Origin: Pyrodictium delaneyi
Lineage (GTDB): Archaea > Thermoproteota > Thermoprotei_A > Sulfolobales > Pyrodictiaceae
Direction: 5' to 3'
Assembly: GCF_001412615.1 (NCBI RefSeq)
Contig: NZ_CP013011.1
Coordinates: forward strand, 1,230,001-1,262,000
DNA length: 32,000 bases
Shown: positions 2,481-17,491 of the stretch, one piece after another
Layout: each line of letters starts with the position of its first letter
Position numbering within the stretch: position 1 is the first letter of the stretch
Program-made: the position numbers and the translations under genes
The notes under the pieces: generated by a model
Database searches by the model: none
What the model was told of the DNA's origin: nothing
What the model saw: the letters and a program-made list of their open reading frames with translations, nothing else

Positions 2481-2819
2481 TTGCTAAACAATTAAACCCT
2501 AATCTCCTCCTCGTTCTCCCTGGCGTTTGTGTAGCTTCGGGCTCTTGCCGTCTCTCCTGTCTTGTTGTGGTTTTGCAGCGGCTTTGTGGTTGTGACTGGT
2601 TGTGCTGGAGAAGGAGGACTTCTTTCCCCGGGGCCCCGGGGAGCTGCCACCAGCTACCGCGGGGTGTATCGCGTCGTATCTGGCTCTGGGCGTGTGTCGG
2701 GTGCGCGTGGTCTTGGCGTGTTTTCTCGTGGCCTAGGGGGCTGGGGTGCCGAGGAGGCCGGGGCGAGGTGCAGCGTGCTGGGCTTGCTGGAGGCGTGGCC
2801 TGCGAGGCAGCTTGGCGTC

Positions 2820-3526
2820 ATGGCTGGCGTGGAAGCGGTGCCTAGGCCGAGTGGTAGGGGGTTTGCTGAGGCCTGTGGGCTTCTGGCGTTCGTCTACGGC
2901 GACGGCGTGGTGGAGGTGCGTGTGAAGAAGACTAGGGTGCTGGTGGTGGCTAGGGTCAATACGCCTAGGGTTGCGACGCTGTTCGCCGGGGCTCTACGGA
3001 TAATGGTGTTCGCTGGGAGGAGGAGTATGGGCTCTGCGTTCTGCTCTGATGGCCGGCCGGGGCTGAACATGTGCTTCAAGGCGCCGCTGGATCTTGACGC
3101 GCTGAGGAGCCTAGGGCTCGGCGGCATCGCTGAGGGCAAGGCCGGTGTGCGTAGCGACCTAATGCGGTGCCTGGAGTCCGGCTCCGGGGCGCTCTACAGC
3201 GTGGTGGCGGGCTCATCGACAGCGAGGGGCATGTGCGCTCAAAGGCGAGCATTATAGAGATAGGTATGAAGGATGCCGAACTCCTCACGGCCCTCTACGA
3301 GCGGCTCCGCGGCGAGGGCTTCAACGTGGCCGGGGTCAGGGTGCGCGGCGACGGGGTGGCTATGCTGAGGCTGTCGCTGAGCACTGCGGACGGGGACAGG
3401 GCCCGGAGGCTAGTCAACGCCATCTACGAGCCGGGCAAGAGGCTGCTGGCTGCGAGGATGCTGGTACCGAGCTGGCCCGGCGCGGCGGCCCCTACGAGGA
3501 GGCCGTCGAGGCAGTGCGGGCCATAG
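2820..3526 (+). pseudogene. I-DmoI-like double-motif LAGLIDADG homing endonuclease gene disrupted by a 1-nt frameshift at 3209-3212. A further frame change near 3450-3500 may extend it to 3738.
   Basis: Motif 1 is GLLAFVYGDGVV, starting from the in-frame ATG at 2820 of the 2562..3257 ORF. Motif 2 appears only when frame 1 (..ALYSVVAG) is joined to frame 2 (LIDSEGHV..), which gives VVAGLIDSEGHV about 108 aa downstream. The following segment, IEIGMKDAELLTALYERLRGEGFNVAGVRVRGDGVAMLRLSL, resembles the second I-DmoI lobe. Frame 2 is closed by stops at 3095, 3131 and 3152, so a frameshift is required. Confidence 0.6.
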
Positions 3527-3685
3527 CCCGGCGGCTAAGGGCGGCGATGTACAGGGAGAGGGCTGGCTGCAAGGAGTGCGCGGAGACGGTCAAGCACGAG
3601 GCCCTAGCCCTGGCCTCCACGGCCCGGTGGGCCGACGAGCAGGGGGAGGACCAGCCCCAGTCCTCCCCCTCCCACAAGCCACACC

Positions 3686-4309
3686 ATGCACAGCTCCGTG
3701 CGGGGTGCTGGGTCTATGCGTGCCCAGCTGCAGGCTAGCGAGGAGACCTGTAGCCTCGCAGTCCGGTTCCTCGACCCGCTCCCCGAGGCCGCGAGGCGGG
3801 CCCTCGAGAAGGGCGGGCTGGCCCGGCTACGGCTCCGCGGGAAGTGCTTCTCGGGTGTGCTCTACCTGGCGGGCCGCCTCGAGGGCGACGTGCTGGCTGC
3901 CGAGGTGTTCCCTGTCGGCGGCGAGTGCCGCCTAGGTGCCTCCACCAGCTGCACCGTCGAGGTAGAGGAGCTACGGGCCGTGGGCCTCGAGGAGCTGTGG
4001 CGGGGCACCCGCGGCCTCATCCCACCGGCAGTGGACACGCTGGAGCTCCTCGCCGAGGCGGGCGCGGCAGCCGCGGCCTACGCTGGGCTCTCCACGTGGC
4101 CGGCGTGCGACGAGCCCATGCTCTGGGAGGCGCGCGTGGACGGCGACTGCCTAGAGGTCGAGGGCCCCCTCCTATGCACGCCATACCTCCGGGCAGTGCT
4201 CGAGAAGCGCGGGGACGAAGAGGCCTCGAGGGAGGAGGACGAGTGGGTGACTATAGCCCAGGGTGTAGAGCTGAGGGTGTGTAGGGATGGTGTGATACGG
4301 ATCCGGTAG
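3686..4309 (+). CDS. Hypothetical protein (207 aa) with no motif I recognise.
   Basis: This is the longest and most protein-like of several overlapping ORFs in very GC-rich DNA. The alternative frames (3576..3935, 3844..4284) are R/G/P-rich junk. Confidence 0.4.
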   Translation: MHSSVRGAGSMRAQLQASEETCSLAVRFLDPLPEAARRALEKGGLARLRLRGKCFSGVLYLAGRLEGDVLAAEVFPVGGECRLGASTSCTVEVEELRAVGLEELWRGTRGLIPPAVDTLELLAEAGAAAAAYAGLSTWPACDEPMLWEARVDGDCLEVEGPLLCTPYLRAVLEKRGDEEASREEDEWVTIAQGVELRVCRDGVIRIR

Positions 4310-4495
4310 CTGTTTCTTGCTCCACTAAACGTAGACATGATACGTAGTATTACGGGGGAGGCTTGCCCGAGAGAATGGCAAGCCTGATTGCGTAGAGAGG
4401 TTTGTATTGGTTACCGGTTATTCACGGTACTACCTGGCTAATATCTTATCTTAGCCGCCATATTGACGCGTAGTTGACCAGGCTGGGTCTCAGTC

Positions 4496-5689
4496 TTGAC
4501 TATAGGGGGAACAGCTACGGAGAAGAATACAAACATAGAAAGAAGGCTTACAAATCTTGTGCGCGACAGAACTGCATTGAGGGCTCTCCTGCACGCGGTG
4601 AGTCGGGTCGAGGAACTTAACCACTCCGAGTTCCCGGTGGCCGTGGAAGCCGTGGGTCTAACTGGCTCAGCTCTACGCATAGAGGATGCTGGCGATATTG
4701 ATGTGGTGCTTGCTTGCCGCCATAGAGAGGAACGTATGAAGGAATGGTGGGAGTTCGACCAGATACTACGGAAGAGCGTACTTATGCTACTAGAGATGGC
4801 CTATGAGCTTAGCTACGAGACCGGCAGGGCCACGATGGAGGCCTTGACCAGGATATATAGAGCAGAGCTGCTAGAACTAGGGTTCAAGGAGAAATGGCTC
4901 AACAACTGGCTTCCTTTTCTCACCATATCCTGGCTACGCTATGTAGCTAGGCTCCCCGCCGTGCCCCGACTAAGGCCAGTAGGGCTCCTAGATAGGTTTG
5001 TCAGAAAGGGGTGGAGCGGGAAAAGACTCGAGATACATGTAGACCCACTTGACGAGGGCTGCAGGTCGTCAAGACTAGCTACCGGCGTACCCTACATCGT
5101 GCTGTGGAAGAGGGGCCAGGGCTTCGTAGAGCCTAGCAGAGAGGAGCTAGACCGTTTCCTACGAGCCGAGCATCAGAAACTAAAACACCTCGTAAAAGCC
5201 CTAATTGAGCGGGACGTTTCCACTCTTCCCACAGCCTACATGGATATCCTAGGAGCCCTAGAAGCAGAAGAGCCCGTCTGCCCACCCTTCACGCCGCAGG
5301 AATGGTGTACGGCCACGGCGAGGCTCTACAGCGAGGCCAAGCGCCTACTAATCCAGCGCTACAATTACCTCGTAGAACTAGCAAACACAGAACACTGTGA
5401 CACAAGAGAGCTTTCAGAGCTAAACAGGAAGCTGTCAGCTACACTCAAGGAGCTAGAAGCCCTAAGCTACATAGTAAACACGTTATCCAACAGCCGCGCA
5501 CTAGATAAAATAGTAGAGAACATAATATACGGCGCGAAGTCTAAGGCGTCCTTTGGGTCGTTTCTCCAAGAGCTAAAGAATTACCTTATACGCAATGGCT
5601 CTAGAATAGGAGTGAGACGCAAACACCTCCATAAACTCCTAGAAGACTTAACCAGTAAGGCAACTACCATCACATCACCTGGACGCTAG
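4496..5689 (+). CDS. Pol-beta superfamily nucleotidyltransferase domain protein with a roughly 320-aa alpha-helical C-terminal extension (397 aa).
   Basis: An N-terminal helix is followed by the minimal NTase signature GLTGSALRIEDAGDIDVVL, that is G57-S58 ... D67-x-D69, with the DID codons at 4694-4702. The remainder is helical or coiled-coil-like. The gene is visibly more AT-rich than its flanks. Confidence 0.7.
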   Translation: MTIGGTATEKNTNIERRLTNLVRDRTALRALLHAVSRVEELNHSEFPVAVEAVGLTGSALRIEDAGDIDVVLACRHREERMKEWWEFDQILRKSVLMLLEMAYELSYETGRATMEALTRIYRAELLELGFKEKWLNNWLPFLTISWLRYVARLPAVPRLRPVGLLDRFVRKGWSGKRLEIHVDPLDEGCRSSRLATGVPYIVLWKRGQGFVEPSREELDRFLRAEHQKLKHLVKALIERDVSTLPTAYMDILGALEAEEPVCPPFTPQEWCTATARLYSEAKRLLIQRYNYLVELANTEHCDTRELSELNRKLSATLKELEALSYIVNTLSNSRALDKIVENIIYGAKSKASFGSFLQELKNYLIRNGSRIGVRRKHLHKLLEDLTSKATTITSPGR

Positions 5690-5989
5690 GTTACTTGATA
5701 TACTGCTACATACTTATTAGTGAGCGGCTCCATTCTACATTTATGTCATCAACATTGAAGCCCAGGGTATGCATTGCTGCTGCACTCTAGTGTTTCAGTA
5801 TGAAATAGAAATTTATATATCTCAGGCCTTATAGCTTTGTGACGGATTCCCTTGCCGTGCACATGCTCCCCTATACTACACAATTAACTCCTATTATGCC
5901 CGCTCTGGGAAGCTCGTTAGGAATGTGGCGTTGTTCGCTGAATGCGCGGCTCCTGCGGTTATCGTGGGGTGGCGTGTCTATGCTAGAGG

Positions 5990-6745
5990 CTATGCCTGGG
6001 TTACGTGTATGGATATCTTTGCAAGGCATCCGTTATGGCTCCGCAGCTTCTTGAGGGTGTCTTCTACTCTGTGGTCGGTAGTTAGTAGTACTATTTCGCT
6101 GGCATTGCTCGTTATTTCTCTCTCTAGGGTGCAGAGGCTTAGCAGTACAGCTACGTCCTCTCTATCCTTTAGCTTGGATTGTTCTGCTAGCCGTGTGGCA
6201 GTTCGTGCTAGTGCTGTATAGTCTTCTCCTACACCGATTGTACAGCCCAGAGTGTTCTCCAAGTAGTGGTTCAGTACATGCTCTATGCTCGCTGCGAGGG
6301 AGTGTATGGGTCCCGTTGACGAGGCGGCGCGCAGCCAGAAGTAGAGGGTGTCAAGCAGCCCAATGGTGTGCCGTGTGTTATCTAACAGTACTAGCAGCTT
6401 CTCTAGGAGGAGGCCTGCGCTCTGTCTCGGAGAGGGTGCGGTGTGGATGGCCCGTAGGGCTGTGTAGAGTAGAACATCCTCCATGCCTTGCCGCGCCGCT
6501 TCGAGGAGCCTGAGTGCTTGCTGTATGCTCTGCCTGCGGCTATGACGGGGAAACAGTGTTAACACGGCTTGCTTAATGTTCCTATAGTTCTCTAGGAAGT
6601 ACCGTATGCTGTTCTGGAGCCGGTGCCGGAACACTTGGAGCACTGCACGGGTGACGATGCATCGGCCACCACTGGTAAGCTGGGCTAGATGGGGAAGGAG
6701 TGGTGCTCTGGCGTACACCCCTACGTCGAGGGCGTAGAGCTTCAA
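5990..6745 (-). CDS. PIN/NYN-like nuclease-fold protein with a large helical insert (251 aa).
   Basis: The N-terminal strand MKLYALDVGVY carries Asp7. The C-terminal part DREDVAVLLSLCTLEREITSNASEIVLLTTDHRVEDTLKKLR matches the PIN pattern D..hhhA.A....hhhT.D. The TTG start overlaps the upstream stop (TTGA at 6742-6745). Confidence 0.55.
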   Translation of the reverse strand: MKLYALDVGVYARAPLLPHLAQLTSGGRCIVTRAVLQVFRHRLQNSIRYFLENYRNIKQAVLTLFPRHSRRQSIQQALRLLEAARQGMEDVLLYTALRAIHTAPSPRQSAGLLLEKLLVLLDNTRHTIGLLDTLYFWLRAASSTGPIHSLAASIEHVLNHYLENTLGCTIGVGEDYTALARTATRLAEQSKLKDREDVAVLLSLCTLEREITSNASEIVLLTTDHRVEDTLKKLRSHNGCLAKISIHVTQA

Positions 6746-7359
6746 AGCATCTGGCTGGCCTCCTCTAGCCTCTGGAGCCCGGCGAGGTGCTCGGCTAGTA
6801 TCTCCTCGGCTACCCGGGGTAGCTGCTTGACTATGTCTAGGCGCCTCTGCCTCGCTAGTACGGCTAGTGCTGCTAGGAGGGCTACGGCTTTTCGCGAGAC
6901 ATGTATGTGCTCCACATGTTCTACGGAGGTGAGGTATAGTGTCTTGACCGCTGTCAGCGTCATTAGTATCGGCTCTATCTCGGCGAGTTCGCGGCCGCCA
7001 GTATAGCGTCTATAGACGTCCTCATACAGCTCGTCGACGCGTGCTGCGAAGAGCCTAGCCTGTTCCCGGACGTAGCTCTCGACATCGATATACTCGAGAA
7101 GGTGCTTAATGCTTTGGGTCTCCTCCCCCTGTGTGAGTTCCTCTATAATCTCCTCGGCTCTCCTGACAGCTTCCCAGCCGCTGCACGGCGTGGAGGACGT
7201 ATAGCTCTCCTCCAGGCGCTCTACTAGCCGGCGGGCTAGCTCTCGGAGCCGATGCTCCACCTCCTCCCGGATAATCTCCTCGTGCTCCTCCGGCTCCCCC
7301 AGCACGCTGCCTAGCAGGCTAGCGCCTAGCAGAGCCTCGGGCGCCGTGCTACTGCTCAA
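6742..7359 (-). CDS. Acidic, all-helical hypothetical protein (205 aa), the middle gene of the Panacea operon.
   Basis: This is an intact ORF that overlaps both neighbours (11 nt upstream, 4 nt downstream). It is rich in E, R and L. An alternative GTG start lies at 7305. Confidence 0.6.
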   Translation of the reverse strand: MSSSTAPEALLGASLLGSVLGEPEEHEEIIREEVEHRLRELARRLVERLEESYTSSTPCSGWEAVRRAEEIIEELTQGEETQSIKHLLEYIDVESYVREQARLFAARVDELYEDVYRRYTGGRELAEIEPILMTLTAVKTLYLTSVEHVEHIHVSRKAVALLAALAVLARQRRLDIVKQLPRVAEEILAEHLAGLQRLEEASQML

Positions 7360-7798
7360 GCTCTATCACCTCCCCCAGCCTCTTCCCCCGAACCTGTGGG
7401 AGGCTGTAGACATAGCGTATGAGTTCCTCGAGGCTGCGGCCCCGCCACCAGCTGGCAACCCTCTCCACAGCCAAGCGAGCATCATCATCGAGTGATAGAG
7501 CGGCGGGCCTCCGGGCCGCCCGGTACTCTATCTTGCGCACCGTAAGCGTCCAGACGTCGATAATCCTCTCTACGTCCACGAGGCCTTGCTCCTCCAACGC
7601 ATCGAGGACGTCGAGCACCTCCCGGGAGAACGGCCCATAGTGCCAGCGTAGCCAGTGGAAGAGAGGCTTCCGCCCCCTCCGCGCCAGCTCCAGGTCAACC
7701 AGAAACATCATCTTAACTATCTCTGTGCGCGATGCGGGCCTCCCCAGCACCTCTAGCAAGTAATGAACGGCTGCCTGACGCCTATCCAACCTTGGCAC
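7349..7798 (-). CDS. Panacea (DUF4065 / SocA-like) antitoxin-domain protein (149 aa).
   Basis: The pattern ...RTEIVKMMFLVDLELARRGRKPLFHWLRWHYGPFSREVLDVLDALEEQGLV... and the C-terminal part ...RVASWWRGRSLEELIRYVYSLPQ... match my memory of the DUF4065 consensus (KLxKLxYxxD...G.PLF...F.AW.YGP...v...). An AT-rich TATA-like stretch lies upstream at about 7830-7865. Confidence 0.7.
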   Translation of the reverse strand: MPRLDRRQAAVHYLLEVLGRPASRTEIVKMMFLVDLELARRGRKPLFHWLRWHYGPFSREVLDVLDALEEQGLVDVERIIDVWTLTVRKIEYRAARRPAALSLDDDARLAVERVASWWRGRSLEELIRYVYSLPQVRGKRLGEVIELEQ

Positions 7799-7974
7799 AA
7801 GCTTATCCCCACACGCCCTCCTGTACTACGGGTACTCATATAACAAGTCTTTTATTTATTCACCTATAACAGTCTAGCGGGCCGGTTTACACGGCACATA
7901 CTCCACACCACCCGAACATAGCTATGTGGGGCCTAGGACACGCATAGCGGTAATACTGCTCTGGTTATTGTATG

Positions 7975-9084
7975 TTAGTGTATGTTAGCGGCGTCGCTCT
8001 GGGCGGGGCTCTGCGCCTCTAGCCTGGTGTTGTGATTTCTGCTAGTACTGGTTTTGCTCCTGCTATTCTTGCTACTGCCTGTCCTCTGGGGGTTGAGGAG
8101 TAGTGTGGCTAGCTCGGTGCGTGCCTCGGGTCTGGGTGCTAGTTGTTCTGCGAGGCGGTGGGCTGGCTCGGTGCCTGGCTGGCGGTGTGCTATGATTGTG
8201 TGTAGGTTGTGTATGTGTGGGGCTGGGTGTGAGGCGACTAGGATTAGGCGGGTGTTCTTCTTCCTGGCTTCGAGGAGTAGCTGCTCCATGGGCGTGGCTG
8301 GGGCTGTGGTGTTGTGGGCTTCCTCGACGGCGAGGTATAGGAGGGGGTCTTGGCCTGGGCGGCGGTGTTGCTGGAGGTGGGCGGCGACGGCGTGGGCGTA
8401 GAGGCTGCGGCTGCGTGGCGGGAGCCCGCTGAGGTCGACGGCGTATACCCGGCTTGGCCTGGGCTCGGCTGGGTCGAGCTTCTTGCCGGGCCCGGACTTC
8501 AGGAACTCTAGGACTGGGCGGAGTGCCTGGAGCCTCCGCTGTAGCGCGTAGATGCTGTTCCTCACGTCGCGGGCAGGCACGCTCTCGGCTCTCTCCTCGA
8601 GGGCTCTTAGGACTGTGTGTATCCGCCGCCGGGTCGTGGAGAGGGTCTTGGCGAGCAGGATGTGCATGAGGGGGCTTAGCTGGTAGCTCTCGCCGAGCAC
8701 GGCTAGGAGGCTCTCGAGCGCCTCGGCGGCCTCGCGGGGGTCCGGGGCGCCTAGCAGGCTGGCTCGCAGCTCGCTGGGCTCGAGGGCCTCGTCGGCCGTG
8801 TCGGTGTGCTCGCCCTCCCAGTCGAGGATGACAACGGAGGCGCCTTGCCGGGCCAGGGCGCGTGCGAGGGCCTTCAGCGTGGTGGACTTGCCAGAGCCCG
8901 TGGCGCCGAGTATCCCCGTGTGGCCGAGGTCTACGGGGGCCCGGAGGACTGCGCGGCGGCGGCCGCCCGGCCCCAGCACGTAGCCGACGGGGGCGCCCCG
9001 GGCCCAGGGCTCCCGGGTGGAGAGTAGTGGCCAGCCCAGCCCCCGGGCATGGCCATGGACCATGGGAAGCTGCGGCCGCGGCAC
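7975..9084 (-). CDS. Compact HerA/FtsK-like (DUF87-type) P-loop ATPase (369 aa).
   Basis: Walker A is HTGILGATGSGKST (codons about 8884-8907). The Walker B-like motif is LLYLAVEEAH. The pattern VVILDWEGEH is typical of HerA/VirB4-like ATPases. The C-terminal tail is low-complexity and S/T/N-rich. The alternative-frame ORFs in this region are R/G/A junk. Confidence 0.75.
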   Translation of the reverse strand: MPRPQLPMVHGHARGLGWPLLSTREPWARGAPVGYVLGPGGRRRAVLRAPVDLGHTGILGATGSGKSTTLKALARALARQGASVVILDWEGEHTDTADEALEPSELRASLLGAPDPREAAEALESLLAVLGESYQLSPLMHILLAKTLSTTRRRIHTVLRALEERAESVPARDVRNSIYALQRRLQALRPVLEFLKSGPGKKLDPAEPRPSRVYAVDLSGLPPRSRSLYAHAVAAHLQQHRRPGQDPLLYLAVEEAHNTTAPATPMEQLLLEARKKNTRLILVASHPAPHIHNLHTIIAHRQPGTEPAHRLAEQLAPRPEARTELATLLLNPQRTGSSKNSRSKTSTSRNHNTRLEAQSPAQSDAANIH

Positions 9085-9825
9085 AGCTCCGGCACGTCGC
9101 CGGCCTCGGCTACGCGGCCCTCTAGGAGGCTGCAGAGGGCCGGCTCCGGCTGGCTGCAGCCTCCCTGGCCCCTGGTGAAGGCTTCCCGGGCCGGGGTACC
9201 CGGCTCCATCCTCAGACTGGAGCTGGGCGGCAGGGACTACTTTGTCGGCCTAGGAGCTCTCTCCCTGGTGTTCTACTCCAGGCTCCACCAGCTCTGCAGC
9301 GTAGAGCGCAGCGTCGGCTGCTTCGAGCACTGCCTACACCGGTGCAGGGCCGGGGCGAGCGACGGCGGCGCGCTCCTCGTCTACACGGTGGGGCCCCGCG
9401 GGGAGCCACGGGGGCTCGCCGTCTGCCCAGCATGCATAGCTCTGAGGGACAGCATACTGGGAGGCTTGTGGAGCTTCCGCGAGGCCTCGGAGCGGGCCTG
9501 GCGGCTACACCTCGAGGCCCGGGCGAGCTGCTCTAGCAGCTCCCAGGCCCTGGAGAGGCAGCCCTCTACCGCGAGCACCTCGCCGCAGACGACGCCGCAG
9601 CACATGCTCCCGCTCCGGCAAACCAGCATCCTGGCCTCTTCGTCGTCTACGCCGACCTCGCTTCGGAACGCCTCCTCCCACCTCTCGGCTAGGAGCTTCC
9701 CCAGCCCCTCGTTAGGGCTCAGCCCGCCCCCGGGTAGCAGAGTCCCCTGGGGGCCCCAGACCGGGGTAGCCGAAAACGTACCCCTATCCTCCGGTGGCAG
9801 GAGCCCGGGGCTGCTAGGGCTTTAG
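9049..9825 (+). other. GC-rich segment with unresolved coding assignment. It is either an intact 258-aa + ORF or the frameshifted remnants of a minus-strand gene upstream of the ATPase.
   Basis: The + ORF is protein-like only in its middle (LELGGRDYFVGLGALSLVFYSRL..CFEHCLHRC..CPACIAL) and S/T/P-rich junk at both ends. The minus strand is protein-like in three different frames in succession, for example GKLLAERWEEAFRSEVGVDDEEARMLVCRSG... and AVLEAADAALYAAELVEPGVEH. It carries in-frame TAG stops and has no usable start codon. Confidence 0.2.
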
Positions 9826-9967
9826 ATTCCAAGGCCTAAGCGACAAGGTATATTACGCACTTGCTGCTAAGAGGGTAACTATAAGGGTGCTGCGGTCTTG
9901 GCGTATGGTATTGCTGTAGTTTTGTCCCAGCTCTGTGTGAATGCTTGAGTTCATGAATCTTGTTCTC

Positions 9968-9981
9968 GGGGGGGGGGGGGG
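9968..9981 (+). repeat. Homopolymeric G14 tract ending 4 nt upstream of the ATG of ORF 9986..10396.
   Basis: Counted directly from the sequence: ...gttctc G(14) atga ATG... Confidence 0.95.
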
Positions 9982-9985
9982 ATGA

Positions 9986-10396
9986 ATGGATACACATCGG
10001 AGGGAAGAGCATAAGGGAGTCTGTTATAGTGGCGGTCTATACGAGCTGATGCACCGTTTTCAAGGCACAGCATTGGAGAGTATTGATGTGCCAGACGAGA
10101 TCATTCATGCCATACGTACTGCGTATACTGTTATAGAAGGCGATTGTGAACTGCTAGAGAAAATACTAGTACGTGTTAGGGAGGTAGCTAGAGGAATCAA
10201 CCCGGACGCGCACGACGCCTTTACCGCCCTGCTACAAGGGCTTCTCTCAGCCGCTGATAGCCATAGGATAAGCTTGATGTGGAATGAGGTCAATATTGAG
10301 ATAAAGGATGAGGAACAAAGCGGTAGGAGGCTCAGCGTTACTATCCGCGGCATACCTAAGGAGGCCTTAATTACTCTCAGGATCTATAACACTTAG
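9986..10396 (+). CDS. Small hypothetical protein, paralogue A (136 aa) of ORF 14091..14642.
   Basis: It shares colinear blocks with the other copy: (G)xCYSG, EGDC-L, LMWNEV-IE and RG-P. No family is recognised. A possible shorter form starts at ATG 10049. Confidence 0.55.
   Translation: MDTHRREEHKGVCYSGGLYELMHRFQGTALESIDVPDEIIHAIRTAYTVIEGDCELLEKILVRVREVARGINPDAHDAFTALLQGLLSAADSHRISLMWNEVNIEIKDEEQSGRRLSVTIRGIPKEALITLRIYNT
10020..10033 (+). promoter_or_regulatory. Conserved 14-mer TCTGTTATAGTGGC, copy 1 (the identical copy is at 14254-14267). It contains a TTATAG TATA-like core.
   Basis: The 14-nt match is exact in two otherwise strongly diverged paralogous loci, and both copies lie downstream of a poly-G tract. 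The promoter role is a hypothesis only. Confidence 0.3.
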
Positions 10397-10915
10397 AAGG
10401 AATCAATCGGGCACCGTGGTGGGTGAATAGCTGCGTCGCAATGGAGTCTCTCTAACAGGTTTAGTCTCATCAACGCTTGTCGAGCGGGCTTGTGGAGCTT
10501 CCGGACTGCAAGGCTATATGGGGGTTAATATAGGGGTTATGGAGAGTGATGCCATAATATGCCTAGGCTGGAGGTATTGTAGTCCTCACCATACCTTCAT
10601 ATTAGGCATCTCGTGACTTTCGTAATGCGCTACAGTGATGGCATGCCGGCAACTGCAATGGGGCAGTCTTGATTCATGGCTCCATAGTTCCTCCTGGCTC
10701 TGGTTTACATAGGGCTTGCGGGCTGTGTGAGATAGTAGAGATTTGTAGCTTAGACCTTCTAATAAATGTGTACATGTGTTACGTAGAGAAGTATTAAGAT
10801 ATAAGCTGAACAGCTTCATAAAGCCATGATAGTTGGATTAATGCCTCTAAGTTATGTTGTTTTTAGTAGCATGTTGATAACATTGTTGCGGTACCTAATG
10901 GAATTTCAGTAGAAG

Positions 10916-11704
10916 CTAGCATGTTTTTTTCTGTACTGCTATTGCAAGATAGCGCTGCAATTCACGGTAAGCCTTGGGGCAGTCGAAGCCTAGGCTCTTC
11001 CTATAGTGCTTACACCGTTTTCTACACTCGACGACGAAAGGAAGTATTAGTCTCCCATGTACGAAAAGTATTATCTTATGGTGCTCAGTATGTATCGTTA
11101 GCGGTAGTGTTTTCGAGATGCTTTTGAGGGCGAGCTGGATGCCTTCGCGGAGGTAGTCTGGTGGTATCCCGTACCCGGAGGCGATCTCGTCTAGGGCCTC
11201 TGTGATGCCGGTGCCGTCGCGTATGTGTGCTAGTATCGCGTCTTTTAGTAGTCTTAGTACGTGTATGGAGGCTTCGTCGAATTTGCAGATTGTTATGCTT
11301 GTTAGGTCTAGTCTCCGTTTCTCGGCCTCGAGGCCTAGGAGGTATAGGAATCCGAGTAGCTCCTTGGCTGTGACTTGGAAGCCCCAGGCGTCGCTGATGC
11401 ATCTTGCTAGCGTGCCTGCGGTGATTAACCTGCTGGTGTAGAGTGCTATGCACCCCTTGGCGGATAGTGCTAGGCTCCCCTTGTTGGACTCTATGGGTAG
11501 GAGGACGCGCTTCTCTACTAGCTTCTTTGCCTTGCGGTAGACTGTTGCTGTGTTTATGTGTGCTAGGCGTGCTATGCGGTAGGGTGTCGCTGTGCCGGTT
11601 CTGAGGTACCAGAGTAGTATCCTCTTTTCGTTATCGTCCATTTCGGGTATTAGGCGTTGCCACAGCCTCTGTACCCTCTCTTCGAATGCATCGAGGGTTT
11701 GCAT
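10916..11704 (-). CDS. Winged-helix (TrmB/MarR-like) transcription regulator with a Cys-rich C-terminus.
   Basis: The N-terminal wHTH pattern is EKRILLWYLRTGTATPYRIARLAHINTATVYRKAKKLVEKRVLL. The C-terminus ECRKRCKHY..FDCPKAY...KKTC has 4-5 Cys. I prefer the ATG at 11704, preceded by AGGAGGTGG, over the track start at 11728. The gene is divergent from the cytochrome operon. Confidence 0.75.
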   Translation of the reverse strand: MQTLDAFEERVQRLWQRLIPEMDDNEKRILLWYLRTGTATPYRIARLAHINTATVYRKAKKLVEKRVLLPIESNKGSLALSAKGCIALYTSRLITAGTLARCISDAWGFQVTAKELLGFLYLLGLEAEKRRLDLTSITICKFDEASIHVLRLLKDAILAHIRDGTGITEALDEIASGYGIPPDYLREGIQLALKSISKTLPLTIHTEHHKIILFVHGRLILPFVVECRKRCKHYRKSLGFDCPKAYRELQRYLAIAVQKKTC

Positions 11705-11890: not shown

Positions 11891-12925
11891 ATGGTGTCTA
11901 GGAGGGAATTCGTAAAGAAGACCATGCTAGTCGTCCTAGGAGGCCTAGCAGTATCGCGCCTAACACCCCTAGCCCGTGCAGCCGGGGAGGCCGCGGGGCA
12001 GGAGGCTCCATCACTCCCATGGCCCTACGTAGAGCTGGACCCGGAGGAGACCCGGAAGCTAGGCCACCTAGGGTACTACATGTTCGAGTGCGCGGGCGGA
12101 GCCTTCTGGGCGATAACAGTCCAGCTCAAGGAGAAGATAGGCTACCCGTGGACCCTCCTACCCATACCATCGCGTGAGGAGGTCATGAAGGCCCTGGAGG
12201 AGGGGAGGCACATCCCCGGCCTCATGCAGTATGGCTACGGCGGCGCCGTGGGCTGGGCGAGCCTATGCGGCTCGCTGAACGGCGCCCTCATGGCGATAAA
12301 CATGGTGCTCGGCGAGAAGGCGGAGTGGGACAAGATAGGGAAGCTCTTGATGAGGTACTATGAGACTACGCCTCTGCCGACTGAGAAGAGCAACGAGTAC
12401 GCGGTTAAGGGGGAGTTCTACGTCAAGAAGCTCAAGAGCGACAAGTGGCTCCCGCAGAGCGTGAGCGGCTCAGTACTATGCCACGTATCCGTGAGCAAGT
12501 GGTGCCGGGTCTCCGGCTACGCGAGCGGCTCCAAGGAGAGGGCGGAGCGCTGCGCCCGCCTAACCGGGGACATAGCGGCTAGGGCGGTCGAGCTGCTAAA
12601 CGCCTACAAGCGTGGCAGACTCGAGGAGGTAGCAGCTTCGCTCACACTGTCACCCACTACTGCTAGCTGCCGTGTCTGCCACTATAAGGGCAAGGACTAT
12701 GAGATAGGGCAGTTCACGCGCGGCTACATGCAGTGCGAGAGCTGCCACACCGACATGAGGCCCCACGCTCACACCTTCGTAGACATAGCTAGGCCTAGCA
12801 GCGAGCCCGCGGAAGAGGCTGGCTCGTCTAAGGGGCTCCTCGCAGCCGGCGCAGCAGCTGGCGCAGCCATAGGAGTGGTAGCTGGTGCACTAGCATCCTC
12901 GAAGAACAAGGAGGAGCGGCAGTAG
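11891..12925 (+). CDS. Tat-signal, membrane-anchored dihaem c-type cytochrome fused to a C_GCAxxG_C_C-type redox domain (split-Soret-cytochrome-like architecture).
   Basis: - The twin-arginine motif is MVSRREFVKK followed by a hydrophobic stretch and ARA.
- The N-terminal domain blocks YMFECAGGAFWAI, SLCGSLNGALMAINMVLG and LCHVSVSKWC...RC fit the C_GCAxxG_C_C family.
- There are two CxxCH haem-c motifs: CRVCH (12668-12682) and CESCH.
- The C-terminal Ala/Gly-rich TM helix is followed by KNKEERQ. Confidence 0.8.
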   Translation: MVSRREFVKKTMLVVLGGLAVSRLTPLARAAGEAAGQEAPSLPWPYVELDPEETRKLGHLGYYMFECAGGAFWAITVQLKEKIGYPWTLLPIPSREEVMKALEEGRHIPGLMQYGYGGAVGWASLCGSLNGALMAINMVLGEKAEWDKIGKLLMRYYETTPLPTEKSNEYAVKGEFYVKKLKSDKWLPQSVSGSVLCHVSVSKWCRVSGYASGSKERAERCARLTGDIAARAVELLNAYKRGRLEEVAASLTLSPTTASCRVCHYKGKDYEIGQFTRGYMQCESCHTDMRPHAHTFVDIARPSSEPAEEAGSSKGLLAAGAAAGAAIGVVAGALASSKNKEERQ

Positions 12926-12960
12926 CGAGCCTAGCTGAGCCATGTTGACGGCGTAGGGGG

Positions 12961-13968
12961 GTGGTTAGTGGTTTGTCGGCGCGCTCCAGCCTCGGGAGCC
13001 TCATAGGGAGCCTAATAGGTACACTCGTACTGCTCGGCTTAGGCTGGCTACTCGTCTACAAGTACGCCATAGAGGTGCTACTCCGGGACGGTGCTGTGAA
13101 GCTCCAGGAGATAAGCAGTATAAACCTGTCCAGCACCCTGTGGTGGCGCAGCTTCATAGCCGTAGCCTTCGACGTACTCATAATAGTGATAGCTGTCATC
13201 GGCACGTGGTGGGTGCTAGCGAACTTCATCGTAGAAGCGCGCGAAGCCGGTAAGTGGAGGAGGTACTACAGGAGCGAGGAGGCGAAGAAGGACAAGTGGG
13301 TGCAGAGGCTCTCCCTCTGGCAGCGCCTCCAGCACCTATGGATGATAATAACGTTCACAGTATGTGCTGTGACGGGTATGGCTGCGCACCTGGACGTGCT
13401 GGCGCCCAGGCAGACACTACTCACGATACATGTATACTCGGGTATAGCCATGGGGCTACTAGCTATCATACACTTCGCACAGTATACGACGATGGCGCTG
13501 ATAGCTAAGGCCCGCGGGGAGAGCCTACGCGAGAAGTTCCCGATGCTAGAGATCTATAGTAGGAAGTTCATACGCGGCGTGGTAAAGACCCTGCTGAGGC
13601 CCTTCAACCCGAGGATGAAGCCGGAGCCCTTCGGCAAGTATGATCCAGAGCAGCTCTTCGAGTACTGGGGCATCTACTGGGGTATGGCGGTACTAGGGAT
13701 ACCAGGTGTAGCGATACTGTTATACGGCCCCGATGTGCTCGGCGGAGTCCTCTGGGTCATGCACTTCAAAGAGGCGATACTAGCTATAACATTCATACTA
13801 ATGGTACATATAGCATACACGCACTTTAGGCCGAAGATATTCCCAATGGATCCAACATTCATCCATGGCAAGATGCCGGTGAAGCGGGCTAAGGAAGAAC
13901 ACCCCGAATGGATACGTGAGCTAACGGGTTCGAGTGACCCAGCACTTACAGCCGATGATAGCAAGTAA
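12961..13968 (+). CDS. Membrane dihaem cytochrome b (Ni/Fe-hydrogenase / formate dehydrogenase gamma-type b subunit family).
   Basis: It is multi-TM with paired His in the helices: QHLWMIITFTVCAVTGMAAH, IHVYSGIAMGLLAIIHF and MHFKEAILAITFILMVHIAYTHF. It lies 35 nt downstream of the cytochrome c gene on the same strand. Confidence 0.75.
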   Translation: MVSGLSARSSLGSLIGSLIGTLVLLGLGWLLVYKYAIEVLLRDGAVKLQEISSINLSSTLWWRSFIAVAFDVLIIVIAVIGTWWVLANFIVEAREAGKWRRYYRSEEAKKDKWVQRLSLWQRLQHLWMIITFTVCAVTGMAAHLDVLAPRQTLLTIHVYSGIAMGLLAIIHFAQYTTMALIAKARGESLREKFPMLEIYSRKFIRGVVKTLLRPFNPRMKPEPFGKYDPEQLFEYWGIYWGMAVLGIPGVAILLYGPDVLGGVLWVMHFKEAILAITFILMVHIAYTHFRPKIFPMDPTFIHGKMPVKRAKEEHPEWIRELTGSSDPALTADDSK

Positions 13969-14090
13969 GAATAGTACATAGTCCCGTACAAGGCTGAAAT
14001 ATTTTAATATTTTTATTATATATGTTTATGCTAAAATGTATGTTTGCTTAGAGTTTTGGGTTTGATTAAAGTTGGGTTCTAGTAAGCTGT

Positions 14091-14642
14091 GTGTGGGGTA
14101 CTAGATATTTGGGGGACCTTGAGGAGAGTATTTCACTGGCTACGGAATATCGTACACGGGCTTATGGCATTGTCGGGAAATGGTGTCTGCTATGGCCAGT
14201 ACGCCAACTAAAATCCGTAGCACACAGAGTGCTCCCGGGGGGGGGGGGGGGGCTCTGTTATAGTGGCTGCTTGGCGACGTTGCTTCAACACTACGGGATT
14301 TCAGATATTCTTAGCAGAGGGCGCTTCGATTTAGGCTTCATAACACTAGGTATAGTCAATGTCTATGTTGAGGGTGATTGTAAACTCTTCCGGAAATTTA
14401 TGAAGCGTATCAAAGAACGTCTAAATATGTTAAACGTTATCTCGCTAGAGACCGTTTTTGAAGTATTTATGAGTGATGCGAAACGGTGTGTTGTACGTCT
14501 TATGTGGAATGAAGTCATTATAGAAGTGGAGGAAGCCTATTCTAGCTCCCGCTTTCAAATGATAGCCCGTGGTGTTCCCTTGGATGTACTGCTTGTGATT
14601 AAAGATGAATGTGTACGGCATTTGGCCATGAAGGCTAGCTAG
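14091..14642 (+). CDS. Small hypothetical protein, paralogue B (183 aa) of ORF 9986..10396; the poly-G tract lies inside the ORF.
   Basis: It shows the same colinear blocks as paralogue A (LCYSG, EGDCKL, LMWNEVIIE, RGVP). The G16 tract is read as P-GGGGG. The N-terminal 49 aa have no counterpart in paralogue A, so the true start may be the TTG at 14280. Confidence 0.5.
   Translation: MWGTRYLGDLEESISLATEYRTRAYGIVGKWCLLWPVRQLKSVAHRVLPGGGGGLCYSGCLATLLQHYGISDILSRGRFDLGFITLGIVNVYVEGDCKLFRKFMKRIKERLNMLNVISLETVFEVFMSDAKRCVVRLMWNEVIIEVEEAYSSSRFQMIARGVPLDVLLVIKDECVRHLAMKAS
14237..14252 (+). repeat. Homopolymeric G16 tract, followed 1 nt later by the conserved 14-mer TCTGTTATAGTGGC (14254-14267).
   Basis: Counted directly from the sequence: ...gctccc G(16) c TCTGTTATAGTGGC... 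Confidence 0.95.
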
Positions 14643-16729: not shown

Positions 16730-17491
16730 TTGAAGGATAAGGATCTCTTCGAGACTGTGGAGGAGGTCTGGGACCGGCAGACGCTTCTCGCAGCCTACGA
16801 GGTCATGAGGCGGCTCCGGCTAGATCGGTTCGCGGGCGTGCTGAGCGCGGGTAAGGAGGCCCGGGTCTACCGGGCGATCGGGAGGGATGGCCGCGAATAC
16901 GCTGTCAAGATATACCTCACTGTGACGGCGGAGTTCCGGAAGAGTATACAGAAGTACCTGCTCGGCGACCCCCGATTCGAGAACGTAGACACGAGCAACA
17001 CTAAGAAGTTATTCTTCGCCTGGGCTAGGAAGGAGTTCCGCAACCTTAAGAGGATGTATGAGGCCGGCGTCCGGGTACCTCAGCCCTACCTAGTCTACCA
17101 GAACATCATAGTCATGGAGTTTATTGGCCGCGATGGGCTCCGGGCGCCGACGCTCCACGAGATAAGGCACGAGATCGAGCCGGATGAGGCCGAGCAGCTG
17201 GCCTGGGAAGCCCTAGAGCAGTACACACGGATATACTGCTGCGCTAGACTCGTTCATGCCGACTACAGCGAGTATAATTTAATGTATATCGACGGTAAAC
17301 TCTATGTCATCGATGTAGCGCAAGCGGTGGCTCTGAAGCATCCTAATGCTGAGGACTTTCTTCGCCACGACGTGGAGAACATATACAGGTTCTTCGCTAA
17401 GCAGCTAGGAGTGGAGCTGCCCGAACCAGAGGAGTTGCTAGAGCGGGTGAAAGCATGCAGGATACAGTGCCCCGAGAAGAGAAGCGAGTAG
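16730..17491 (+). CDS. rio1: RIO1-type serine protein kinase.
   Basis: The RIO signatures are LSAGKEARVY, YAVKIY, LVHADYSEYNLMY and VIDVAQAV. Confidence 0.9.
   Translation: MKDKDLFETVEEVWDRQTLLAAYEVMRRLRLDRFAGVLSAGKEARVYRAIGRDGREYAVKIYLTVTAEFRKSIQKYLLGDPRFENVDTSNTKKLFFAWARKEFRNLKRMYEAGVRVPQPYLVYQNIIVMEFIGRDGLRAPTLHEIRHEIEPDEAEQLAWEALEQYTRIYCCARLVHADYSEYNLMYIDGKLYVIDVAQAVALKHPNAEDFLRHDVENIYRFFAKQLGVELPEPEELLERVKACRIQCPEKRSE

Follow-up and report, generated by a model that had tools for sequence, protein, structure and literature searches.

Two small paralogous genes of the archaeon Pyrodictium delaneyi, here called A and B, each carry a long, uninterrupted run of guanines at the 5' end. Both lie in a stretch of 32,000 nucleotides of contig NZ_CP013011.1 (assembly GCF_001412615.1, positions 1,230,001 to 1,262,000 of the forward strand), hereafter the window, whose first base is position 1 wherever coordinates are given without another locus name. 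The A tract has kept its position among related lineages, tract length is polymorphic at both genes, the length at B determines which start codon is in frame, and a 14-mer shared by the two genes encodes a conserved peptide motif. On balance, and with some reserve, we think it probable that these slippage-prone poly-G tracts form an archaeal contingency-type switch, in which changes in length would alter expression and selection would maintain the tract. An earlier reading of the window, made from its letters without database searches (hereafter the sequence-only reading), had singled out the tract as the interesting part and expected its length to vary. That expectation is borne out: the B tract is G16 in one strain and G12 in another, and tract length ranges from 10 to 47 between lineages.

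Both tracts are over-represented relative to the run-length spectrum, in the window itself and in a wider survey. Runs of at least ten guanines occur at only two places in the window, namely A and B, against about 0.002 expected runs of at least 10 when the decay of run lengths is extrapolated. Counted as ten-base G matches, the excess is 12 observed against a mean of 0.2 in shuffled sequence. The wider survey of G and C run lengths covered ~74 kb, made up of the window, a 20-kb P. abyssi locus (L010) and two metagenomic loci (L002 and L008). Across it, G/C runs reach at most 6 nt apart from tracts of 10, 14, 14, 16 and 47, and all five of these belong to members of the A/B gene family. The two in the window each mark the 5' end of a family member, and no other member occurs there. 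Each has a slip-prone length (about 8 nt or more) and a 5' position, with G16 inside the only long open reading frame (ORF) of B and G14 before the ATG of A.

At A, the tract stands in front of the start codon, outside the reading frame:

9968..9981, plus strand: G14 homopolymer directly upstream of A; its position is kept in all relatives.
9982..9985, plus strand: ATGA spacer from tract to ATG; the TGA within it shares the frame of A.
9986..10396, plus strand: paralogue A, 136 aa, an orphan alpha/beta protein starting at ATG 9986.
9847..9967, plus strand: region upstream of A, conserved in the alignment, including the TATA-like GGTATATTAC (9847-9856).

The sequence-only reading was correct about the G tract of B but did not stress A's own G14, 4 nt before the ATG. 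Relatives of the A tract are syntenic loci reached by exact-protein look-ups. In every one of these loci, a pure G run lies 0–4 nt 5' of the start codon, on the coding strand. The window and L008 have G14 there, five independent assemblies share a G10, a single assembly has G33, and P. abyssi reaches G47. The P. abyssi tract is uninterrupted, comes from a complete genome and is followed by ATGA as in the window. The two A proteins are 56% identical, and synonymous divergence between their genes is saturated. These comparisons indicate that the A tract has been kept in place since before the split of P. delaneyi and P. abyssi, its length drifting (10, 14, 33, 47).

The 120 nt upstream of A are conserved among P. 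delaneyi-like lineages. The best TATA-like element in this region, GGTATATTAC, lies ~110 nt before the tract and is kept in three lineages, so the A tract probably sits in a transcribed leader of roughly 100 nt if GGTATATTAC is used. An Rfam search around the leader returned no match. The ORF of A is unaffected by tract length, since the in-frame TGA of the ATGA spacer shuts it to upstream reading at every length. Slippage at A would thus alter the leader beside the start codon without any change of frame.

Comparison with a second strain extends the length polymorphism to B. The assembly of P. delaneyi strain Hulk (GCA_002194565.1) was made from Illumina MiSeq reads at 380x and comprises 9 contigs, and Hulk has a reported similarity of 99.77% to the type strain Su06 (PMC5556600). 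The Hulk contigs used here (L001 and L011) are 99.88–99.90% identical to the window over the aligned stretches. Over the 10.4 kb compared (99.9% identity), the complete set of differences is three single-nucleotide polymorphisms (SNPs), one indel in an AGA repeat and a 4-G indel at the B tract. Protein A is encoded identically on Hulk contig NCQP01000008.1. Length polymorphism among close strains is therefore seen at both genes: G16 and G12 at B, and G10 and G33 on identical metagenome flanks at A. We take the strain comparison, together with a Hulk contig that starts inside the A tract, as a sign of hypermutability.

At B, the tract lies inside the reading frame, at the edge of the conserved part of the protein:

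14237..14252, plus strand: G16 homopolymer at the 5' edge of the B conserved domain; G12 in Hulk.
14253, plus strand: single C between the tract and the 14-mer.
14253..14642, plus strand: B conserved domain, LCYSG...EGDC...LMWNEV...RGVP, stop included; orthologue of P0006 (L009) and of the L002 10643-11092 pseudogene.
14091..14236, plus strand: 49-aa N-terminal extension, read from GTG 14091; in frame only at tract length 1 mod 3.
14180..14236, plus strand: alternative ATG-started leader MVSAMASTPTKIRSTQSAP; in the frame of the domain at tract length 0 mod 3 (G12 in Hulk, G15).

In the ORF at 14091-14642 the tract is read as ccG plus five GGG codons, giving Pro-Gly5 between the 49-aa segment and L-C-Y-S-G. 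The coordinates and frame agree with the sequence-only reading, as does the 14-mer that follows. When tract lengths are simulated, the reading frame of B depends on the length, a result in silico only. Lengths of 1 mod 3 (e.g. G16) bring GTG 14091 into frame and yield 183 aa. Lengths of 0 mod 3 (e.g. G12 in Hulk) bring ATG 14180 into frame instead and yield MVSAMASTPTKIRSTQSAP-Gly(n)-LCYSG, whereas lengths of 2 mod 3 leave no upstream start, the sole remaining one being a TTG past the Cys motif. The predicted poly-Gly junction peptides are SAPGGGG(G)LCYSG and HRVLPGGGGGLCYSG. The claim that any slip of one base would truncate the protein thus holds in one direction only: G17 closes the frame, but G15 brings ATG 14180 into it. 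Hulk B, with G12, is recorded as a 123-aa product that starts at the TTG past the Cys motif. Because of the tract, gene callers place the B start differently, with products of 183, 152 or 123 aa.

Orthologues without a tract suggest how this arrangement arose. A four-way alignment sets the B tract opposite GCAATGAGCGAGGGAGAGG, which in the tract-free orthologues (L009, L002) comprises the ATG and five codons. The L009 protein P0006 is an intact tract-free B orthologue that begins MSEGEVCYSG. Its L002 counterpart (10643-11092) is a pseudogene with an in-frame TGA, and RYSG replaces CYSG. From this alignment, the B tract appears to have replaced the ancestral ATG and five codons, so that the 49-aa extension would be former upstream non-coding DNA. 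The sequence-only reading had observed that the extension has no counterpart in A, and we find none in any homologue.

Combining these observations, we propose that replication slippage, and possibly transcriptional slippage, changes the length of the tracts. B would then have only makeshift starts upstream to be translated from, with the tract read through as a poly-Gly linker, and would toggle among two isoforms and an OFF state according to tract length. The OFF state would correspond to 2 mod 3, where no start retains the conserved Cys motif.

The main rival to this switch is neutral runaway expansion, which we hold possible but on the unlikely side. In this account, a Shine–Dalgarno-like G-rich purine stretch at the 5' end of the ancestral gene seeded a runaway microsatellite under weak slippage repair, the tracts are a by-product and B is a pseudogene. 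Candidate seeds do exist: in tract-free paralogues the corresponding site holds G-rich purines (GAGCGAGGGAGAGG in both L009 and L002), and GGAGAGGGA adjoins the ATG in a P. abyssi paralogue. Yet no other G-rich seed grew past 6 in the ~74 kb, and the A tract stayed fixed in position across saturated synonymous divergence, uninterrupted even at 47 nt. The in-frame TGA that insulates A's ORF is compatible with neutrality, since tract length need not then matter to A. At B, neutrality can point to N-terminal extensions without a homologue and to a lineage represented by a pseudogene in L002 and by a deletion fusion in L008. It accounts less well for the conserved domain, whose ratio of nonsynonymous to synonymous substitution rates (dN/dS) is ~0.17 against the intact orthologue, and for the fact that two of the three frames at B are open with start codons.

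Several further points weigh against the contingency-type switch. Microsatellites can persist for long periods through slippage dynamics alone, so that neither conserved position nor purity is proof of selection. Homopolymer lengths are error-prone in assemblies, G16 versus G12 sets two independently made assemblies against each other, and the G33 allele lies near the end of a metagenome contig. The B gene of P. delaneyi may be dead, its start destroyed by a runaway microsatellite, and the decay of the B lineage in L002 and L008 is plain to see. An effect of tract length on A expression is something we infer throughout, and a protein to which no function is assigned offers no selective rationale for switching. 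Tentatively, and with more doubt than the switch itself calls for, one can picture a fuller version in which selection has kept the poly-G over the whole divergence of P. delaneyi and P. abyssi, with tract length stochastically setting A expression and the isoform or OFF state of B, and the tract possibly also acting as a point of breakage or of integration for mobile elements.

The 14-mer that follows the tract in both genes had attracted attention as a possible DNA element. Its two copies, and the equivalent positions in homologues, are as follows:

14254..14267, plus strand: 14-mer TCTGTTATAGTGGC in B, made of the last two bases of a Leu codon and the Cys-Tyr-Ser-Gly codons.
10020..10033, plus strand: 14-mer TCTGTTATAGTGGC in A, made of the last two bases of a Val codon and the Cys13-Tyr14-Ser15-Gly16 codons.
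A orthologue of P. abyssi: CATGCTATAGCGGC (TGC TAT AGC GGC).
Intact B orthologue (L009): TCTGTTACAGTGGC, one synonymous base off TCTGTTATAGTGGC.
B-lineage pseudogene of L002: TCCGTTACAGTGGT.
Third paralogue: CCTGCTATAGCGGT.

The exact match between the two copies is real, as is the heavy divergence around it (the proteins are 28% identical). From this contrast, and from the A/T-rich TTATAG core, the sequence-only reading had suggested selection at the nucleic-acid level: a TATA box with the G tract as its B recognition element (BRE), with shorter proteins starting near ATG 10049 and TTG 14280, or else a protein-binding or recombination site. The family alignment speaks for the protein instead. 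The pattern C-[YF]-[SR]-G occurs in 10/10 aligned family members with a complete N-terminus, 5–12 residues past the start, and its Cys and Gly are invariant in the ten full-length members aligned. One further P. abyssi paralogue, found by DNA scan only, has CFDG. In an AlphaFold2 (AF2) model (predicted local distance difference test score, pLDDT, 74), the motif forms beta-strand 1.

At the DNA level, the homologous 14-mers differ mostly at third codon positions. TTATAG becomes CTATAG in the P. abyssi A orthologue, TTACAG in the intact B orthologue and CTACAG in P0011, and since these changes fall at synonymous third positions, the core is not conserved as DNA. With 38 nt from tract to 14-mer at A and 1 nt at B, the two do not make up a fixed composite element. 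In these alignments, one or a few synonymous sites account for the exact match between A and B, and the 14-mer reads as the conserved (V/L)-C-Y-S-G codons, with no need for selection on the nucleic acid. Conserved C-Y-S-G codons with synonymous variation elsewhere were the very pattern that the sequence-only reading had named as contrary to such selection, and they are what we find.

The more specific proposals for this element fare no better, and we regard a TATA box with a G-tract BRE, or a binding or recombination site, as highly improbable. Poly-G does not resemble the archaeal BRE consensus, which consists of A-containing purines, and at A the tract stands 38 nt away from the supposed box. 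The shorter proteins would lack beta-strand 1 with its conserved Cys. As a binding or recombination site, the 14-mer founders on the conserved codons, and the recombination scars of the relatives are located elsewhere in the genes. Gene conversion of the 5' end of A into B was also considered as the source of the shared 14-mer and rejected: the intact B orthologue is already only one base away, and B lacks A's 38-nt spacer.

A fixed cis-element in the A leader, such as an RNA or DNA G-quadruplex, the target of a C/U-rich antisense small RNA, or a site bound by ribosomes or a protein, would give the tract a function in which length only tunes the outcome. We consider this unlikely, although several features of the locus suit it. 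The tract is always on the coding strand and directly before the start codon, and the conserved upstream region with the TATA-like GGTATATTAC suggests a long leader. There is also a precedent in Helicobacter pylori, where a variable G-repeat (6–16) in the tlpB leader is read by the small RNA RepG (PMC8295292). As in tlpB, the variable G-repeat of paralogue A (10–47) lies upstream of the start codon and not in the ORF. By analogy, tlpB/RepG is the closest described counterpart for A, and tract length would there tune output gradually instead of flipping a frame. The resemblance has limits: the A tract adjoins the start codon, the translation machinery is archaeal, transcription of the A tract is putative, and a search of Rfam, the only one made, turned up neither a family nor a C/U-rich small RNA partner. 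Moreover, tract-free paralogues evidently function without a tract.

An intramolecular quadruplex is a fold that the sequence-only reading had named as possible for runs of 15 or more guanines. In a folding model, such runs can form a three-tetrad quadruplex, and they satisfy the motif used for archaeal putative quadruplex sequences, which have been surveyed in archaeal genomes (PMC7565180, PMC12873603). The Pyrodictium tract departs from the typical motif in being a pure homopolymer of variable length and not a set of spaced G-runs. The G14, G16, G33 and G47 tracts meet the motif of four G-runs of at least 2–3, but the G10 allele of five independent assemblies does not; it is too short for an intramolecular quadruplex, so quadruplex formation cannot be the shared function. 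Quadruplex energies computed with ViennaRNA at 95 degrees C were uninformative, as the parameters are not meant for that range.

A different significance, structural and not regulatory, would follow if the tract were a fragile site or an integration hot spot, prone to breakage, rearrangement or the capture of mobile elements. On Hulk contig NCQP01000001.1, the match to the window breaks off exactly where the A tract begins, at window position 9968 (L011 7831 / L012 2864). Beyond the breakpoint the contig runs into DNA that the window lacks: 8.25 kb of ORFan genes with one CopG/RHH gene, then a tRNA-Val(CAC), then a TraG/VirD4-like gene; the last five codons of the CopG/RHH gene fall within the flank shared with the window. 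One of the nine Hulk contigs starts inside the A tract, and in practice such a tract breaks short-read assemblies. The breakpoint reflects a genuine insertion of a mobile element or a rearrangement at the tract, or else an assembly error that the tract caused.

We nevertheless judge the fragile-site explanation improbable. The surroundings lend it some colour, in that lineages differ in the arrangement of the DNA upstream of A (a 7-kb island by a tRNA gene, inverted segments) and the B region has lost or fused paralogues. However, a breakpoint at the tract itself is found in one lineage only, and where contigs reach, the ~330–450 nt upstream of the tract are collinear in four other lineages. 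The Hulk junction has just one G, and G10 opens the matching contig, a configuration that a short-read misjoin or break could produce.

The rearranged DNA upstream of A can be described in its own right. An intron-containing tRNA gene lies at 2370-2477 (Rfam score 47.5 bits; missed by ARAGORN). After it come ~7 kb (2521-9517) that are absent from the related L002 lineage. Among the genes there are ORFans and, both on the minus strand, those for a HerA/FtsK-like ATPase (7975-9084) and a Panacea-domain protein (7349-7798). This segment looks like the remnant of an integrated element at the tRNA. No direct repeats (attachment sites, att) linking the tRNA at 2370-2477 to the tract were found, and a 37-bp match in the Hulk-specific DNA that was considered as an att site proved to belong to a tRNA-Val gene of its own. 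Directly before the conserved A leader, between 9185 and 9516, L002 and L008 match short segments of the window in the opposite orientation, which indicates inversion or rearrangement scars in a stretch of 67% GC. A Cys-rich ORF of 82 aa without a Pfam match overlaps this stretch on the minus strand (9381-9629).

The contingency-type switch that we favour would act on a small orphan gene family. A profile hidden Markov model (HMM) search of 1.8 billion representative proteins gave 10 matches at E <= 0.001, nine of them small family proteins. Where a family match has a name or a source record, this points to Pyrodictium or to related hyperthermophile metagenomes, and scans of genome and metagenome contigs for further relatives gave no match. 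Searches with Pfam, PADLOC, a PDB fold search using the AF2 model and the protein HMM search found no known family or fold for the A and B proteins. As far as these sequences go, this is an orphan family found only in the Pyrodictium lineage.

Within that lineage, the family changes quickly. The window has two copies, L002 has three and P. abyssi has five. The third paralogue of the relatives (L002 9171-9608) is absent from the window, and in L008 (10087-10399) two deletions fuse it to a B-type copy. Identity to L002 falls from 93% in the flanking genes to 85% in the A region and about 60–70% in the B region. For A, dN/dS is 0.42–0.52 against close relatives, set beside the lower value for the B domain given above. 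These comparisons indicate a family that is fast-evolving yet under some constraint. In L002, an A7 run (9162-9168) stands two bases (TA) upstream of the ATG of the third paralogue and is the longest A/T run of that locus.

Homopolymer-slippage switching is a textbook strategy of host-adapted bacteria. Described cases of bacterial poly-G phase variation include the Neisseria genes lgt and pgtA and genes of Campylobacter (PMC2192423, PMC539331, PMC2831843). Like these contingency loci, paralogue B has a long poly-G in the 5' part of an ORF that sets the frame, tract length varies among close strains, the tracts stand far outside the general run-length distribution, and the family is fast-evolving, variable in copy number and pseudogene-prone. 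Unlike them, the Pyrodictium host is a hyperthermophilic archaeon and not a host-associated bacterium, and the A and B products look like small cytosolic orphans, not surface proteins or glycan enzymes. Two of the three frames of B are open, which would give an isoform switch plus an OFF state instead of simple ON/OFF. Finally, reversible switching is putative for the Pyrodictium loci.

Among archaea, the examples of phase switching known to us are driven by insertion sequences. Fitz-Gibbon et al. reportedly described, in 2002, length instability of G:C mononucleotide runs in the hyperthermophilic crenarchaeon Pyrobaculum aerophilum as a genome-wide mutator phenotype. The window differs from that report in having two tracts only, in a single gene family, one of them conserved across species. 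In the pertinent part of a 2010 survey of 18 archaeal genomes, over-representation concerned mainly poly(A)/poly(T), and poly(G)/poly(C) runs were not placed nearer to gene 5' ends (PMC2831843). Our limited literature search found no report of long poly-G tracts acting as a switch in archaea, and nothing relevant on Pyrodictium homopolymers. If the switch is real, it would be a clear case, at the level of sequence, of simple-sequence phase variation in Archaea, in an organism that grows near 100 degrees C. A tract held at one gene across Pyrodictium species provides a concrete and testable locus for archaeal phase variation. It also lets one ask how the replisome and RNA polymerase handle long G runs at ~100 degrees C, and test whether G tracts in a leader influence translation in archaea.

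Two genes separate A from B (11891-13968), encoding a putative redox protein with the motif C_GCAxxG_C_C and a weak match to a cytochrome-b561-like membrane protein. All relatives, P. abyssi among them, keep the pair in synteny. With its two conserved Cys, the orphan family may be functionally linked to this redox/membrane pair. One more feature lies between the pair and B:

13996..14048, plus strand: AT-rich block tttaatatttttattatatatg upstream of B; from its sequence, a candidate TATA region and/or T-rich terminator of the preceding gene.

The remaining differences between the window and Hulk are clustered or repetitive. All three SNPs fall within 10 nt (12874-12883), near the 3' end of the C_GCAxxG_C_C gene (11891-12925). 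The AGA-repeat indel at 17475 is 3 bp long, in frame, and located in the overlap of a RIO kinase gene and a KH-domain gene. Both indels in the 10.4 kb thus fall in simple repeats, one in the AGA repeat and one in the G tract.

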